A stretch of 64,000 nucleotides of DNA from Escherichia coli (GTDB taxonomy: Bacteria > Pseudomonadota > Gammaproteobacteria > Enterobacterales > Enterobacteriaceae): NCBI RefSeq assembly GCF_024298765.1, contig NZ_CP101210.1. The stretch is one strand, 5' to 3'. How positions within the stretch are numbered: position 1 is the stretch's first letter; each line of letters begins with the position of its first letter. Shown here one piece after another: positions 37,292 through 64,000 of the stretch. The position numbers were made by a program, and so were the translations under genes. The notes beneath the pieces were generated by a model. The model searched no databases. It saw only the letters and a list, made by a program, of their open reading frames with translations, and was not told the DNA's origin.

Positions 37292-37661
37292 TTCGCCTCC
37301 GGATACTTACCCAGGGTAATGTTATTTACCGTTCTGTAATTGTCGCGGGTCATCAGGCCGGTCGCCCTGCGAGCCCGGAGGATATCGATGCTGTTTATTA
37401 ACTGAGAGCGGGTACAGGCGCTGAATCCCGGCTGGTCGGTAGCACCAGCGCGTATTTTTCCACGAGAAAGTTCACCGCATCACACAGTGAAATGCCTGCC
37501 TCAATATGCTGCTCAATCACACGTTCATCGGCAAAAGGTGTGTCATTCAGTGTGAGGCCATAGTGCTGGTCCAGCAGTCGGGACAGCAGTATCTGCCAGA
37601 TTTCAACAGGAGACGGGCGAGAACTGGCCGCCTGCCCGGGTAATACAGGTAATGTTTTCAT
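37288..37661 (-). pseudogene. cbtA: CbtA-type toxin (cytoskeleton-binding), apparent 1-bp frameshift
   Basis: N-terminal [73 protein letters not shown] then premature stop; the conserved tail ...[51 protein letters not shown] resumes in another frame; span is 374 nt. Confidence 0.65.
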
Positions 37662-57685: not shown

Positions 57686-59310
57686 ATGGGCAACGCAATG
57701 CACTCTCTTAAGACACTTCTACAGTTACCTTGCGGATGGCGATGCAGTCGACAAATTATTAGCTCTGACGGTATAACCCTCCATCTCCACGGAAAACGCA
57801 AAACAGCACAATGTCCTGAATGCTTTAAGCGTAGCGACTCTGTTCATAGTTGTCGTCGGCGCCGGATACAGCATCTACCCTGCTCAGGGCAGACGCTATG
57901 GCTTGTATTTTCCGTCCGCCACTGGTACTGCCGTAACCCGGCTTGTTCACGTAAAATTTTTGCCGAGTCGCTTGCTCCCTTCGCCAGTTCACACCAGCAG
58001 TCTTCACAGGCGTTACAAAATTAACAACGTCAACTGGGATTAATAGCTGGAGGTGAGGCTGGAAAACGGGCTGCAACGGCAGTGGGTCTCCGTTGCAGTG
58101 CTGATACTCTTCTTCGCAGGCTTATCAATACCCCGGAGACGAAACAGTCAGGCGCGCCTCATGTCGGTATTGATGAGTGGGCGTGGCATCGGGGCCACTG
58201 CTGCGGTATGTTAATAGTCAATCCTGATACTCACCGTCCCCTCGTCCTGCTTCCCGGCCGTGATCAGCGTACGCTGGCGACCTGGTTCAGAAAATATCCG
58301 GAAATACAGGTTGTCTCGCGTGATCGCAGTGGAGTCTATGCGACAGCAGCACGTGAAGGTGCACCTCAGGCCAGACAGGTGGCCGATCGATGGCACCTGC
58401 TAAAAAATATTGGTGATGAGCCTGAACGAATGATGTACAGACATATGCCTCTGATACGTCTTGTTGTCAGAGAGTTATCACTGAAGAAATCACCTGAGCC
58501 AGAAATATCTGTGCCTGTAGCATCGCTCCGTCGTCTGGAACGCCTTAAACAGCACATCCGCAAAAAACGGCATCAGCGTTGGACAGAGGTTATGGCCCTG
58601 CATAACAAGGGATGTAGTTTCAGGGAAATATCCCGTATTACAGGCCTGTCGCGAGTGACAGTCAGTCGCTGGGTGAGTTCAGGAACATTCCCTGAAATGT
58701 CAACCAGGCCTCCAAAGCGAGGGCTTCTGGACCCATGGAGGGAGTGGTTAAAAGAGCAACGAGAATGTGGTAATTATAACTCCGGCCGGATATGGCGGGA
58801 AATGGTGGCCAGGGGGGTTACAGGCAGTGAAACCATCGTCAGGGATGCTGTTGCCAAATGGCATAAAGGCTGGATCCCACCGGTTACTACTGCCGCAAGA
58901 CTTCCTTCAGTGTCACGGGTAAGCCGCTGGTTGATGCCCTGGAGAATAATCAGGGGTGAAGAAAATTATGCTTTCCGATTTATTAGTCTGATGTGTGAAA
59001 AAGAACCGGAGTTGAAAATAGCGCAGCAACTGGTACTCGAGTTCTACCGTATTCTGAAAACCTAAAATAAATCACAGCTAAGCAGCTGGTTCACTCGGGT
59101 CCACGAAAGCGGCTCAGCAGAACTTCGGTGCGTAGCTGCGGGGATGGAAGCTGATGCTGCGGCTATATGTGAGGCAATCAGCAGTCGCTGGAGTACTGGT
59201 GTTGTCGAAGGTCATGTAAATCGCCTGAAGGTGCTGATACGCCAGATGTATGGTCGAGCCGGACTTGAACTACTTAGGCGGAGGGTAATGAGTCCACTGG
59301 CATGAAAATC
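57686..59310 (+). mobile_element. ISL3-family transposase gene, disrupted (at least three frames)
   Basis: N-terminal zinc-ribbon ORF 57686-58024, DDE-like ORF 58082-59065 (GIDEWAWHRGH..., DRWHLLKN), C-terminal ...WSTGVVEGHVNRLKVLIRQMYGRAGLELLRRRVM in a third frame. Confidence 0.6.
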
Positions 59311-59348
59311 TTCACCCAGGTTGAGGAAGAGCCACTTTTGCACTGTTC

Positions 59349-59677
59349 GTGACAGTATGGCCTTTATGTACTCACTTTGTTACCGGTAGCTGGATCATCA
59401 CTACCGTGCCGCAAATGGTGGTGAACAGCATCAATTGTGGAATGAATGTTGCCGAAGCGACCAATGCGCCTCGTTTCCACCATCAGTGGTTGCCGGACGA
59501 GCTGCGTGTTGAAAAGGGTTTAGTCCGGATACGCTCAAGCTGCTGGAAGCAAAAGGTCAGAAAGTGGCGCTGAATGAGGCGATGGGCAGCACGCAAAGCA
59601 TTATGGTTGGGTCGGATGGTGAGTTGTACGGCGCATCCGACTCGCGCTTGGTGGATGATTTAACGGCGGGGTATTAA
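59349..59677 (+). pseudogene. ggt: gamma-glutamyltranspeptidase 3' fragment, frameshifted
   Basis: ...IITTVPQMVVNSINCGMNVAEATNAPRFHHQWLPDELRVEKG then 1-bp shift to FSPDTLKLLEAKGQKVALNEAMGSTQSIMVGSDGELYGASDSRLVDDLTAGY*; only the C-terminal ~110 codons present. Confidence 0.75.
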
Positions 59678-59716
59678 TTGACATCCCCCGGCGCAATGTG
59701 CCGGGGGATAATGGTT

Positions 59717-60751
59717 TTATGCGGTCAATAATCGTCCGGGATTATCGATACAGAGTTTTTTGAGGATCGTTTTATCGACGCCGCGCTCCGCCAGATAGGC
59801 CAGAAAAACATCTGGAACAAATCCCCAGCCATTACCGCCATTTTTAGCCCACATTTGTTTAAGGAAGACATCGTGGCTGAGAACAAGCTGATCGGCGTAT
59901 CCCAACTCAATGAGATGAGCGACGGCATCGGCAGTCTCCTGCACCCCTGGCGCTATTCCCTCTTTCGGGAAGGTAATGTCTAGGCCAATCATGTCGAATT
60001 CCAGCCAGACACCTTTATCAAGCATTTTCCGCTGATACGCCACGTCTTTTCCTGACGGATCCGAGTGTGCGAGAGAGACTTTATTTGGCGAGACGCCCAT
60101 TTCACCTAACACAATGTCGAGTACTTCATCACCGCGACGAAGCCAGCCCGGCATGTGAATATTCATCGCCACATGAGGATTGTTAATCTGTGCCAGCGAG
60201 GCAGCCCGCAAGCTGTTATGCTCGGCTTCGGTAAATGTCGGTGAGACACCTATTTCACCGATCATTCCGGCACGAATATCCGTATCGCCAATCCCTTGAT
60301 TCAATTCTTTATCGATCGTTGTCGCTAGTTCATCAACCGTTTTATGAATTCTCTGGCTTTCAAATTTTTCCAGGTAGGGACCGGAGGAAGCAACAATATT
60401 CAGACCTGTTTTTAATGCGACTTCTCGTAATGCCTGCGCATCTCGTCCGATAGACTCAGACCCTGTGGCATCAACAATGGTGCGACCACCGAGCGAGATA
60501 AAGTTATTAATTTCGAAGATCACATCTTCAATAGGTTTGCGGTCCATATTATCAGCGCAGCAATAAGGATCGTGTTTTAATGCCCACTGGATTTCTGCCG
60601 TGACTTTTTTATCAACAAGCTGTTGTGAAAAAGGATAGCAAGGAGCATCCACAACAGAGGAAAGATCGTTGAACAGATGTTCATGAGGAAGTGTTAGCCC
60701 CATATCTTCACGGGCGACGGGGCCCGTCACAGTTTGTAGATAATCTTTCAT
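59717..60751 (-). CDS. phosphotriesterase-family (PHP-like) metal hydrolase
   Basis: 344 aa; N-terminal GLTLPHEHLF metal-binding motif. Confidence 0.8.
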   Translation of the reverse strand: MKDYLQTVTGPVAREDMGLTLPHEHLFNDLSSVVDAPCYPFSQQLVDKKVTAEIQWALKHDPYCCADNMDRKPIEDVIFEINNFISLGGRTIVDATGSESIGRDAQALREVALKTGLNIVASSGPYLEKFESQRIHKTVDELATTIDKELNQGIGDTDIRAGMIGEIGVSPTFTEAEHNSLRAASLAQINNPHVAMNIHMPGWLRRGDEVLDIVLGEMGVSPNKVSLAHSDPSGKDVAYQRKMLDKGVWLEFDMIGLDITFPKEGIAPGVQETADAVAHLIELGYADQLVLSHDVFLKQMWAKNGGNGWGFVPDVFLAYLAERGVDKTILKKLCIDNPGRLLTA

Positions 60752-60753
60752 GA

Positions 60754-61718
60754 TTATACCTCCATTTTCTTCATTGTTTTCGAGGCTCTGTATTCCGGAA
60801 TAGTGGTAACAATTGCACCGACCAGTGCAAACAGTGTTCCGATGATCGTGACCAGATAAACGGTATTGCCCAGCGATGGAATTAATACGTCAATCAATAC
60901 TGATCCCAGTAACTGGCCCGCCGTTGAAGCAACCCCCAGCATCAGTAACCCCAGACCTCTGACCAAAATGGCCATTAAACCGATAGACATTAGTCCAAGC
61001 GGGCCGCCAAGATACATCCACCAGACATCTGGTAATTGAACAGTGACGTGCCCTAATGCGACACGAATAGCTAGCGCTGTGCCTAAAACACAAAATCCAA
61101 CGATGAAATTCTAGGTGATTGAAACCAGCATGATCCCGTAGCTTCAGCTACTTTTGCATTTCCAGCGGGCTGCCATCCTGCAAGCAAACCAGCTAAGAAC
61201 GGAAGAATGGCAAGTAAGATGAAAGAGGTAGAATGCCACTGAGGTGACACAACAAAAATCGTAGCAATAACCGCAAATAATGCACCGATGATGCGATAAG
61301 GGGTAAAGTATTTTTTCTCGTCGACACCGATACCAAAGCGATCGCAAAGTAAACCAGACAGCAATAGCGCGGAGATCAGTGCGGTCTGAAACGTTGCGAC
61401 CCCGAGTGCGCTGGCTGATGCGCCTTCAGAAAATACCACCATCGCTCCACAGAGACCGGCAAACCAGTTCCAGAGAGGAACTTTTCGGTTTTTAATCAGA
61501 GAAGGAATTGCCGCAAATTGTTGCCGGGTTTCTTTTCGCGCCATAATAATAAAAAACATCACGACTAAACCACTGGCAAAGGAGATAACTGCGCATGCAT
61601 TACCATCCTGTAACCAGTGACCTAATTGACCATTCACCGCTGATTGCATAGGGGAGAGCATACCCGCAAGAATCGTGGCAAGCATCCATAAGGGAGTTGA
61701 GTACTTATTCTTTTTCAT
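60754..61718 (-). pseudogene. membrane transporter, split into two ORFs by frameshift
   Basis: hydrophobic ORFs 61083-61718 and 60754-61017 in different frames; second frame is open across the junction (…NFIVGFCVLGTALAIRVALG…). Confidence 0.5.
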
Positions 61719-61774
61719 ACATCAATCCTTCTATTATAGTAAATGGAGTAACTGGAGTTACCCCATTATTATTA

Positions 61775-62532
61775 TTATCTTGCAATATGAGTCAGTATAT
61801 TTACCCACAACGCGGTATAGAACGGCCAGGACATAAACTGCTGTGTACCCCAGTGCGGTGAACAGTCACTCATAAAGCAGGCTATTTTCCCGTTGTGATA
61901 GTTACCAAAGACCAGTAATGGAGCGTTGTTTATTGTTAATACCACCTCAGCATTTTCTTTAGCGATCGCCCGGTTATAACCTAGGAAAAAAGGATATTCA
62001 GAGAACCCTTTAATAACTGGATGTTCAGGTTGTGATGGCTGTGCAATAACACCCTCTGGTTTTTCGACACGATCGTCACCATCTAACATCGTAACCGGGA
62101 GCACATCAGCCAGAACTGTATTTTTATAATTGGCTTTTGCTTCAATTCCCATGAATGAGAGATAGCCGCCAATCATCAATAACCCACCACCGTTATTCAC
62201 ATATTCTTTAATCAGTTCGAGAGCGTTTGGTTTTATGCGAAGCTGATAAAAAGTATCATTTTGTAGCAGGAAAGTATTACTACCAATATCACTAATAACG
62301 ATGGCATCATATTGTTCTAACTGTGCCACATCTTCAGGGAAGGCAATTTGTACCGTATGTGCTGGCATATAGGTGACATCTACCTGACTATTTTTCAGAC
62401 ACTGGAGTAACCAGGTGCACCTTCTTCATATTTACTTGAGGTAAAACTGTCATATCCTTTTGAATGAATCATATGAATATGCCAGGATTCCCCAATAAAG
62501 AGCACTTTTAGTGATTTTTTGGTGTTATTCAT
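61775..62532 (-). pseudogene. class-I glutamine amidotransferase-like fold protein, frameshifted near N-terminus
   Basis: ORF 61775-62368 plus upstream MNNTKKSLKVLFIGESWHIHMIHSKGYDSFTSSKYEEGA in another frame. Confidence 0.4.
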
Positions 62533-62643
62533 TCTCTGTCCTTTCTTAATGCGTAAAAATAGTTTGCTGATAATGTATACTCTGAATTCGATGTATCACA
62601 GATTCATGTTCAGGCATGTCGGAAGCATTGCTTGTCTCCACCG

Positions 62644-63755
62644 CTAGGGATGCAAAGGCGCTGGCATAACACAGTGCTGATTCCAGTGATTTTCCTTTCG
62701 CAAGTCCTGATGCCAGAGAGCCGTTAAACGCATCCCCGGCTCCTGCCGTATTTTTAACGACCGCTGGAAACGCTGGCGAATGAATTTTTTGCCATCAAAT
62801 GCGAGCGAGCCCTTGCTACCGAGCGTGATAACCGTGTTTTTTACCCCTTTATTGTGGATAGCTTCTGCAGCTCGTTTAGCTGATTCAAGATCGTGTACGT
62901 CTATGCCGGACAGTAAACCAGCTTCTGTTTCATTGGGGGTGATATAATCAACATCCTGAATAAGTTCGTTGACGATATCATTATAGGGTGCCGGGTTAAT
63001 AATGACCGGGATACTGTTTTTTTGCGCCAATGTGATCGCTTGTTGCAGAGCGGTATAATTTGTTTCGAGCTGCAGAAGTATGACATCAGAATTAATAATC
63101 GCTTCTTTCTGAATAGTTATTTCATCGGACGACATTGTCATGTTGGCACCGGGATAGATCGCAATAACATTATCGCCAGTACCTTCATTAACAAGGATCG
63201 TGGCAGTTCCGGTTTGCGTTTCTTTCGTTTGATAAATTATACTTTTATAAATCTTAGACGAATTCATAAAGTTGATCGCATAATCACTAAAGTGATCTGT
63301 ACCTACTTTTGTTATGAAATAAACATCAGTATCGGCAAAGCTTGCTGCCAGCGCCTGGTTACAGCCTTTTCCCCCGGTGAAAATATAAAATTACTTGCCA
63401 GAAGCGATTCTCCGATAGTGGGAAGCCTCGGCAAATAACTGATGATATCAACATTAAACGAACCAATAACGCATACTTGACTTTTCATAGTTGAGTGGCC
63501 TTTTTTTATTCCCTGGGCTGTATCATAATTTTCAAGCGCATAAGCGATTTCATTTTTCGCAATAGTATCAAGCGAGTCTAGGACGATAAAAGCACCGCCA
63601 TGACATCGAGTCAGATAGCCAAGCCTGGCAAGTTCATTAAGATCTGAACGAATAGTTTCTTTCGTTACATTGAGGCTATTGGACAGATCGGATACTTTTA
63701 CAGAACCGAATTTACTGAGTCGTTTCAATATTTCATGATGGCGTTCAAATTTCAT
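62644..63755 (-). pseudogene. DeoR-type HTH fused or adjacent to PfkB/ribokinase-like sugar kinase, at least two frameshifts
   Basis: N-terminal HTH; kinase region VCVIGSFNVDII...; frame breaks at C5 run (about 63365) and A6 run (about 62790); C-terminal TAGAGDAFNG motif only in shifted frame. Confidence 0.55.
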
Positions 63756-63863
63756 GCTTCACCTCACTTCAGTTACGTTAATATCTGTCGATGTATATTG
63801 ATGTGATAATCACCATAAAGTGGCGGGGAAAAGCAAAAAAAAGCAAAAATAGCCTGAGAAAAG

Positions 63864-64000
63864 GTAAGCGTTAATGGAGAATCATATTGATGCTTATTTA
63901 TTGGTGAGAACTACGTTCCATGGCAGGAGTTCATCAATACGGTTGGAAGGTTATTCCGGCAGTACGCTCAGGATATGGCGCAGATACGCTTCCGGATCAA
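63864..64000 (-). mobile_element. IS66-family element, 3' end (continues beyond window)
   Basis: gtaagcgttaatgg terminal IR at 63864; minus-strand translation ...ELLPWNVVLTNK* parallels the fragment at 36535-36712. Confidence 0.7.

Follow-up and report, generated by a model that had tools for sequence, protein, structure and literature searches.

Frame breaks in a rikA-type islet of Escherichia coli as heritable lesions of a decaying accessory locus

Judged by comparison across genomes, the frame breaks clustered near one end of the analysed window, a 64,000-nucleotide stretch of an Escherichia coli genome (contig NZ_CP101210.1, assembly GCF_024298765.1), are real heritable lesions whose pattern lies far beyond chance or error. 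They lie in what is very probably a horizontally acquired islet that has gone unmaintained in the window's lineage, with three of its four genes inactivated over time by five small heritable mutations. The islet occupies 59.3-64 kb, near cobU and a CP4-44-like island, and is flanked by insertion sequence (IS) remnants. On the minus strand it carries a rikA kinase gene and genes for a GATase1-like protein, a DMT transporter and a phosphotriesterase-family hydrolase (Table 1). Pfam assigns the intact alleles to PF08220 and PF00294 (kinase), PF07090 (GATase1-like), PF04657 (DMT) and PF02126 (hydrolase). NCBIfam has no specific model for the GATase-like or the DMT protein, and the kinase scores below its ribokinase cut-off. 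The ISL3 flank is 99.9% identical between the window and strain 104, in which the NCBI annotation pipeline PGAP labels it 'ISL3 family transposase, internal stop'.

Table 1. Features of the islet and its flanks, in positions of the window.
Feature	Coordinates	Strand	Basis
ISL3-family transposase pseudogene with internal stops, left flank of islet	57686..59305	+	ORFs of 112, 327 and 53 aa; PGAP label in strain 104
ggt 3' stub, last ~97 codons of 580, A5->A4 at 59512-59515	59385..59677	+	nucleotide identity to ggt
G+C-rich inverted repeat CCCCCGGC...GCCGGGGG between convergent ggt stub and phosphotriesterase-family (PTE) gene	59685..59707		sequence reading
Phosphotriesterase-family (amidohydrolase) gene, intact, 344 aa; counterpart of STM3550 and Pmi1525	59717..60751	-	full ORF; Pfam PF02126; PDB 3rhg
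DMT (YdcZ-type) transporter pseudogene, W203 amber and 1-bp deletion	60754..61718	-	alignment to intact EC958; Pfam PF04657
GATase1-like (PF07090) pseudogene, 1-bp deletion in codon 40	61775..62532	-	alignment to intact alleles
rikA (DeoR-HTH and PfkB ribokinase) pseudogene, G6->G5 and (ATTC)3->(ATTC)2	62546..63755	-	alignment to intact alleles
IS66-family transposase remnant, start only, right flank, continuing past the window end	63951..64000	-	PGAP annotation of identical sequence in strain 104

We mapped the lesions by alignment to intact alleles such as those of EC958, an E. coli ST131 strain. Close relatives hold intact full-length orthologues: all four genes are intact in EC958, ZJ3920 and GN03590 (404, 252, 321 and 344 aa, in the order kinase, GATase-like, DMT, hydrolase), as they are in many lineages, ST131 included, and they are full length in Citrobacter. 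The five disrupted reading frames reported in the initial annotation do exist, close to where it placed them. It had described them as a run of single-base frameshifts, several at homopolymers, and this stands in part: four of the six lesions, counting that of the ggt stub, are single-base deletions and two of the six fall within runs of at least four bases, but one is an amber substitution and another the loss of a 4-bp unit. In the transporter gene, TGG has become TAG at 61111-61113 (substitution at 61112), a nonsense change without a frameshift, and one base is deleted at 61132/61133 (GGATCC->GGATC) from a run of just two. The GATase-like gene lacks one base at 62416/62417 (GCGAC->GCAC), outside any repeat. 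In rikA, a tandem run of three ATTC units has lost one (4 bp) at 62778-62785, and the G run, which reads C5 on the plus strand, is shortened at 63371-63375, a true homopolymer. The C5 tract named by the initial annotation is thus a lesion site; its A6 run merely adjoins the ATTC loss, and the homopolymer contraction in the ggt stub lies next to, not in, the G3/T3 that it named.

These lesions remove or shift conserved or catalytic parts of the proteins. The predicted products are 147 instead of 404 aa for the kinase, 45 instead of 252 for the GATase-like protein and 211 instead of 321 for the transporter. In rikA the reading frame is lost from residue 128, within the GGKG motif, and with a net -5 bases Asp343, a residue critical for RikA activity (PMC13432705), falls out of frame. 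The function of the three lesion-bearing islet genes is predicted to be lost in the window's lineage.

We then asked how far the same lesions recur in 5,426 complete genomes, a set that excludes the window's own genome and contains about 2,000 islet-bearing records. Because the window's genome lies outside this set, it is a further independent observation of the lesions. Positions 59300-64000 of the window are identical over their full length (100%) to four complete genomes, and three more are identical but carry an IS2 insertion. The closest match to the window over 25 kb is 99.0% identical and has an O128-type O-antigen. Strain 104 has an islet identical to the window's, together with a different O-antigen cluster and a his region that is just 97.3% identical. 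Each islet-gene lesion is reproduced in 9 to 607 complete genomes. The transporter amber occurs in 607 of 2,038 records and the exact allele of the GATase-like deletion in 158 of 1,948. The shortened G run of rikA (G5) is present in 239 records on four flank types (186 with the window's flanks, and 41, 11 and 1 with the others), and 142 records, with two flank types (84 and 58), lack the ATTC unit. The rarest lesion, the transporter 1-bp deletion, is found in 9 of 2,016 records, exactly nine genomes, which come from chicken, dog, human and wastewater. G5 is also carried by UTI89, IHE3034, UM146 and APEC O18, whose genomes we take to be Sanger-era. In the identical sequence of strain 104 (DDV95_RS14225 to RS14245), PGAP marks ggt, DMT, GATase and PfkB kinase as frameshifted or containing an internal stop, and the phosphotriesterase-related protein as intact.

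Since the same lesions recur in many independently sequenced strains, the frame breaks point to gene decay and not to sequencing error. The contrary reading, in which intact genes only look broken because of errors in sequencing or assembly, chiefly in the calling of homopolymer length, can draw on the A5->A4 and G6->G5 changes, the two lesions that sit in runs of at least four bases, and on one G5 background, TUM14759, that is a single genome and may be an assembly error there. However, the nonsense substitution, the 4-bp unit loss and the deletion outside any repeat all lie elsewhere than in such runs, and even the rarest lesion recurs in nine assemblies that differ in host and submitter. 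The 186 records with G5 and the window's flanks, and the four older genomes with G5, weigh in the same direction, so that the breaks are neither confined to long homopolymers nor irreproducible between assemblies. Moreover, the other ~36 kb of the window hold no broken core gene: as the initial annotation had observed, gnd, ugd, eight his genes and sbcB are full length, and so are dacD, sbmC, yeeA, plaP and yeeE, all matching their annotated lengths in a related genome. The artefact reading, effectively refuted by cross-genome identity, is extremely improbable. It is less probable still, to the point of being scarcely credible, that programmed ribosomal frameshifting or stop-codon readthrough bypasses the breaks and full-length proteins are still produced. 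A G run is slippery in principle, and nothing more specific speaks for bypass; the intact orthologues of E. coli and Citrobacter are single uninterrupted reading frames in which the shift site is not conserved, and a bypass would have to work at each of five separate lesions, which differ in kind. The initial annotation had preferred true pseudogenisation, in an accessory islet undergoing decay, to artefact and had proposed a comparison with orthologous loci; through identity to other genomes, intact alleles elsewhere and PGAP pseudogene labels, that comparison settles the question for real decay.

We compared haplotypes in 15 full-length islet loci. The kinase gene is disrupted in 11 of the 15, by G5 on four haplotype backgrounds, by the ATTC loss on two and by a nonsense change, Q81*, on one. 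GPEC856, 21AH057, TUM14759 and SJ7/ES7 have a rikA lesion while their other three genes are full length. Each mutant rikA haplotype has a near-identical partner with G6 or with three ATTC units. The two substitutions flanking the G run were rejected as sole markers of independent events: they are 9 bp apart, all four combinations occur, and one of them, CCAGG->CCAAG at a Dcm site, is probably recurrent. For this reason, independence was judged by 4-kb haplotype pairs (N41/EC958, GPEC856/21AH057, TUM14759/ZJ3920 and DA33137/HCP30S3_I2), which suggest at least three, and probably four, independent events. A strictly nested order of lesions within a single lineage was also discarded. It had fitted the first six loci and was broken by eight more, among which are loci with G5 alone, with the ATTC loss alone, and with these two combined in the absence of the DMT or GATase lesions. 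Such non-nested lesions would require recurrent mutation or recombination, and of these we adopted recurrent mutation at the two repeats as the probable explanation; recombination is also evident, AHB4 and 21AH057 being mosaics. The sampled islets contain two amber codons, the window's W203* and the Q81* of other strains, and each stands at a Dcm site (CCTGG or CCAGG). The recurrence at G6 and (ATTC)3, together with the position of the ambers at Dcm sites, suggests that most of the lesions fall at mutational hot spots; for two of the deletions in the window no such context is evident.

Repeats that mutate again and again within a coding sequence might be reversible phase-variation switches, rikA then being a contingency locus of which the window shows the OFF state. 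This would produce what is seen: four flank types with G5, two with the ATTC loss, and near-identical partners without the mutation. The Citrobacter orthologue specifies the same amino acids with codons that form neither the G6 nor the ATTC repeat. As at the contingency loci of Haemophilus and Neisseria, the rikA frameshifts fall at simple repeats in a coding region and recur in different lineages; unlike at those loci, the tracts are much shorter, the changes are contractions only, the alleles are fixed within large clades and several further, irreversible lesions are present. Known phase-variable repeats are longer than these tracts. Among the 15 loci no expansions accompany the contractions, and the alleles are fixed over groups of 186, 41, 58 and 84 records with no flicker among close relatives. 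A repeat underlies the frameshift at G6 and (ATTC)3 but not at the GATase and DMT deletions, and no single slip would restore function, since the kinase changes of -1 and -4 total -5 bases and the breaks extend to two neighbouring genes. Phase variation is thus a very improbable account of the locus. Convergent adaptive loss, in which loss of rikA or of the whole islet was positively selected in several E. coli lineages, deserves more weight and yet is unlikely. It would explain why rikA is disrupted in so many of the full-length copies, four of them with the other three genes full length, and one G5 group does hold UTI89, IHE3034 and APEC O18, presumably ST95 extraintestinal pathogens. However, rikA contains two repeats prone to slippage and a Dcm site, which explain the excess equally well; the many lineages with four intact genes, ST131 among them, have kept the islet, and the substitution counts are too small for a test of selection. 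The islet lesions fit both neutral decay and selected loss. In E. coli rikA is hit repeatedly, and we offer only as a doubtful possibility that selection for loss of the kinase in several lineages lies behind this, with synonymous codon choices (CCG GGG GGA; AAA AAA TTC ATT CAT TCG) acting as built-in breakage points.

The hydrolase gene stands apart from this decay. Its protein matches Pfam PF02126 at 8e-47 and, end to end, PDB 3rhg (Pmi1525) at 3e-174, and the gene is intact in all 15 full-length islet copies examined, which could reflect a residual function. Its three synonymous and four non-synonymous substitutions are too few for an inference of selection. Next to it, the ggt stub is 92.5% identical in nucleotides to the 3' end of K-12 ggt and 81-82% identical to Citrobacter ggt. 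Weaker ggt similarity may extend leftwards to about 59349. The inverted repeat between the two convergent features resembles a terminator, putatively common to both. Every islet copy examined has the frameshift in the stub, even where all four genes are intact. A search across genomes of different species, by a degenerate DNA pattern built on a conserved GATase peptide, found three contigs only, all from Citrobacter, and there a full-length ggt lies beside the four-gene set, with ggt and the hydrolase gene convergent as the stub and the hydrolase gene are in the window. That adjacency would explain the orphan ggt stub of the E. coli islet, which we infer to be a passenger from the islet's original place beside ggt.

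Together, these observations are consistent with a history in which the islet was acquired horizontally along with the 3' stub of the neighbouring ggt and then decayed under relaxed selection. If allele frequency reflects age, the transporter amber would be the oldest lesion; next, in either order, would come the kinase change G6->G5 and the 1-bp deletion of the GATase-like gene, then the loss of the ATTC unit, with the transporter 1-bp deletion the youngest. Sequence context suggests that the A5 and G6 runs and the three-unit ATTC repeat were shortened by replication slippage, and the transporter amber may have come from a Dcm site (CCTGG->CCTAG) whose 5-methylcytosine was deaminated. Coulondre and Miller reportedly found in 1978 that amber hot spots of lacI lie at CCAGG sites, a setting shared by W203* and Q81*. 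Decay has gone further in other strains, by IS insertions and, in about 860 genomes, by deletion down to a hydrolase fragment. The islet in E. coli is accordingly found intact, point-mutated, IS-disrupted, mostly deleted or absent, and K-12 lacks it. Small indels at short repeats, here a homopolymer and a tandem tetranucleotide, are shared with enterobacterial decay elsewhere, such as the indel-driven gene loss of Yersinia pestis (PMC9248902), the mechanism in the islet being read from sequence context alone.

By gene content and order, the islet is the E. coli counterpart of the rikA (STM3547)-STM3548-STM3549-STM3550 locus of Salmonella Typhimurium (McCormick, Jabbar & Escalante-Semerena, Mol Microbiol 2026; PMC13432705): the same four gene types occur in the same order on one strand. 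Its authors describe the cluster as conserved across Escherichia, Citrobacter, Budvicia and Proteus. Like Salmonella RikA, the intact E. coli kinase has 404 aa, a DeoR HTH, Met90 and Asp343, as placed by published numbering and not by direct alignment to STM3547, and PGAP names some E. coli copies 'ribokinase RikA'. The intact GATase-like protein matches the crystal structure of STM3548 (2gk3) at 5e-146 over 252 aa, and it is for this protein only that identity with the Salmonella counterpart was established in this way. The window differs from the Salmonella locus in that three of the four genes are pseudogenes and the islet is not beside an intact ggt; neither 'pseudogene' nor 'ggt' occurs in the main text of PMC13432705. 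Pmi1525 of Proteus mirabilis (PDB 3rhg and 4qsf), the amidohydrolase of the phosphotriesterase family that aligns with the window's 344-aa protein, has a reported metal-stimulated esterase activity (PMC5341072), an activity of the Proteus protein to which the E. coli hydrolase is likened by sequence.

The pseudogene status of these genes is already known from RefSeq annotation, and this is routine gene decay; the PGAP annotation of strain 104 makes the same calls, without lesion positions, population frequency or recurrence. We found no specific earlier description of these E. coli pseudogenes in the literature. Genes with these frame breaks are best left annotated as pseudogenes, without 'correction' of the sequence. 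An unnamed accessory islet of E. coli is now tied to the recently characterised Salmonella rikA locus, and the series of islet states in E. coli could aid both the search for the substrate of the rikA-STM3550 pathway and the study of accessory gene loss.

Lesions in the four-gene islet were located by alignment to EC958 (ST131), a reference strain selected for its undamaged copies of all four islet genes. The initial annotation had reported a run of single-base frameshifts, several at homopolymers, in the ggt stub, transporter, GATase-like gene and kinase. Alignment to EC958 and to K-12 ggt confirms that these genes are broken close to where it had placed the breaks. The lesion types are only partly as described: four of the six are single-base deletions, the other two being a nonsense codon and a 4-bp loss, and no more than two of the six fall within runs of at least four bases. 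The predicted products are 147 rather than 404 aa (kinase), 45 rather than 252 aa (GATase-like) and 211 rather than 321 aa (transporter). Of the four genes, only the one for the hydrolase is intact. At 61776-61778, across the GATase stop codon and following spacer, an ATA/TAA trinucleotide repeat varies in length, being one unit shorter in B2-type islets (EC958, GN03590), without effect on coding sequence.

Islet genes, flanking elements and lesions in window coordinates. Records: those with the lesion / those carrying the segment.
Feature	Position	Strand	Pfam or change	Remark	Records
ISL3-family transposase pseudogene	57686-59305			left flank of islet	
ggt 3' stub	59385-59677	+			
ggt stub lesion	59512-59515		A4 vs A5 in K-12 ggt		
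Phosphotriesterase-family hydrolase	59717-60751	-	PF02126	intact	
YdcZ-type DMT transporter	60754-61718	-	PF04657	Pfam on intact version	
Transporter amber codon, W203*	61111-61113		TGG to TAG	nonsense	607/2,038
Transporter deletion	61132/61133		one C dropped from GGATCC	1 bp; 20 bases upstream of W203* codon	9/2,016
GATase1-like protein	61775-62532	-	PF07090	Pfam on intact version	
GATase deletion	62416/62417		G dropped from GCGAC	repeat context absent	158/1,948
DeoR-HTH/PfkB kinase (rikA)	62546-63755	-	PF08220+PF00294	Pfam on intact version	
Kinase ATTC loss	62778-62785		(ATTC)3 to (ATTC)2, loss of 4 bp	adjoins A6 run, outside run	84/1,961 (window-type flanks)
Kinase G5	63371-63375		G6 to G5 (C5 on + strand)	within GGKG-motif codons, residue 128	186/1,972 (window-type flanks)
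IS66 remnant (start)	window end			right of kinase gene	

The asymmetry between broken accessory genes and full-length core genes holds as well. Compared with an annotated related genome, gnd, ugd, wzzB, hisIE, hisF, hisA, hisH, hisB, hisC, hisD, hisG, yeeZ, yeeY, plaP, yeeE, sbcB, dacD, sbmC and yeeA all have the annotated lengths. A further broken accessory gene lies beyond the region first named: cbtA (37398-37661, minus strand), which encodes the toxin of the CP4-44-like island's CbtA/CbeA pair, is frameshifted, and its ORF closes after 87 aa, the tail being aberrant; cbtA of strain 104 is labeled 'frameshifted' by the NCBI pipeline, PGAP.

We determined allele counts using short queries centered on each lesion. 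The lesions recur in 9 to 607 records, and four complete genomes (104, D10, FDAARGOS_1286 and FY10) match window 59300-64000 from end to end at 100% identity, which for practical purposes excludes a sequencing artefact as the source of the frame breaks. Three more genomes are identical over this segment except for an IS2 insertion. The nine genomes with the transporter deletion came from chickens, a dog, humans and wastewater, and in the PGAP annotation of the identical sequence the broken genes are pseudogenes, marked as frameshifted or internal stop. The 5,426 complete genomes do not include the window's own; over 25 kb, the strains that match it best share 99.0% identity and have an O128-type O-antigen cluster. 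Relative to strain 104, the islet is 100% identical and the his-to-CP4-44 region 97.3% (window 1-50000 compared), and the O-antigen clusters differ (O128-like in the window, O53 in 104), marking the O-antigen/his hot spot and its surroundings as a recombination mosaic. Since this genome is outside the collection and distinct from strain 104, it is one more independent observation of the five-lesion islet. Thus, the initial preference for genuine pseudogenisation is borne out by orthologous loci sharing the lesions.

Window 57.7-64.0 kb is E. coli chromosome, and the islet's gene content fits the Salmonella rikA-STM3550 cluster. There, the gene for the PfkB ribose kinase RikA (STM3547, 404 aa; DeoR domain at residues 2-57, functional start at Met90, critical Asp343) is followed downstream by STM3548 (GATase-like), STM3549 (DMT) and STM3550 (phosphotriesterase); Citrobacter, Escherichia, Budvicia and Proteus share the conserved cluster, whose true substrate is reported as unknown (2026 paper, PMC13432705). 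Likewise, the intact E. coli kinase has 404 aa, Met at 90 and Asp at 343, and PGAP names some copies 'ribokinase RikA'. For the GATase-like protein the match is to 2gk3, the crystal structure of STM3548 (5e-146); the hydrolase matches Proteus Pmi1525 (3rhg, 3e-174), for which esterase activity is reported (PMC5341072). The 147-aa truncated kinase product (63315-63755) would keep the entire DeoR HTH domain. Because active RikA begins at Met90 (PMC13432705), its N-terminal domain may have a separate role.

On two Citrobacter contigs, all four islet genes are intact and a complete ggt, encoding 580 aa with 92-93% identity to K-12 GGT, converges on the hydrolase gene across a gap of about 50 bp, the same arrangement as in the window. 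The ggt stub has 92.5% DNA identity to K-12 ggt and 81-82% to Citrobacter ggt, and the islet proper is ~75% identical to Citrobacter. On these grounds the islet appears to be a fragment of the locus next to ggt in a fairly close relative, which would have moved to the IS-rich site between the CP4-44-like island and cobU, carrying the ggt end along. Every islet copy examined has the stub with its frameshift, even where the four genes are intact. This lesion is old and without functional consequence. At its left edge (59385-59400) the stub lacks 12 bp that K-12 has between two GGTAGC direct repeats; similarity is patchy from ~59349 to 59384, so the truncation point is not fixed exactly.

A nested series seemed to emerge from the first six loci: no lesion in EC958, only W203* in HCP30S3_I2, the GATase deletion and G5 added in DA33137, ATTC loss in 2009C-3133 and the transporter deletion in the window. 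Eight further loci broke a strictly nested order. TUM14759 carries G5 alone, 21AH057 carries ATTC loss alone, and GPEC856 carries both, its GATase and transporter genes being undamaged; in N41, a B2-type islet has G5 together with a CAA to TAA codon in the transporter, and SJ7, ES7 and AHB4 share Q81*, a kinase amber codon. Every G5 carrier pairs with a near-identical G6 islet over 4 kb: GPEC856 with 21AH057 (0 SNPs), TUM14759 with ZJ3920 (two), N41 with EC958 (four), and DA33137 with HCP30S3_I2. Allele-specific queries placed G5 on three further flank types (41, 11 and 1 records, the 41 including UTI89, IHE3034, UM146, NU14 and APEC O18; 239 in total) and ATTC loss on a second (58 records; 142 in total). 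Flanking SNPs were not relied on alone because two beside the G run are homoplastic. Judged from these haplotypes, there would have been at least three, probably four, independent G6 to G5 events, and the 4-kb pairs support two independent ATTC losses. Some recombination among islets is also present.

Sequence context was used to infer the mutational mechanisms. Replication slippage classically occurs at sites such as A5, G6 and (ATTC)3. In the Citrobacter orthologue, the amino acids encoded at the two kinase repeats are specified by CCC GGT GGT and CAA TTC ATC TAT TCT, which are repeat-free, indicating that the E. coli repeats are accidents of codon choice. No obvious hot-spot context was found at the GATase and transporter deletions. 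Deamination of 5-methylcytosine at Dcm sites underlies the lacI amber hot spots, and W203* (CCTGG to CCTAG) and Q81* (CCAGG to CTAGG) are the changes it would be expected to produce. The inner cytosine of a Dcm site is the position changed in two of the three nonsense codons in sampled islets (these two) and in a homoplastic SNP (CCAGG to CCAAG) 21 bp from the G run, suggesting deamination hot spots; the third, in N41, is not at a Dcm site.

Recurrence at two rikA repeats is what phase variation would predict, but the tracts are short, only contractions occur among the loci sampled, alleles are fixed in large groups, and the window's kinase is a net five bases short with two other genes dead, making such switching very improbable. 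Programmed frameshifting that restores full-length proteins merits almost no credence, given that the orthologues are single ORFs. Positive selection for loss of rikA, or of the whole islet, is the most interesting open reading; we consider it unlikely, and the repeats and Dcm sites suffice to explain the hits.

Some part of the islet is present in 2,773 of the 5,426 complete genomes, and most of it in 1,908. All four genes are intact in, for example, EC958, ZJ3920 and GN03590, while other islets carry point lesions or IS insertions (IS2, IS3, ISEc8, ISVsa5); K-12 has no islet sequence at the locus. About 860 genomes keep only part of the islet, many of them the ggt stub and the hydrolase 3' 850 bp beside IS3. 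In many E. coli (e.g., TUM17668) nothing is left but the ISL3 pseudogene, the stub and the hydrolase 3' 852-869 bp, ending at an IS3, which shows the islet at a later point of its decay, after deletion. The frame breaks are thus real but ordinary accessory-gene decay, already annotated as such.
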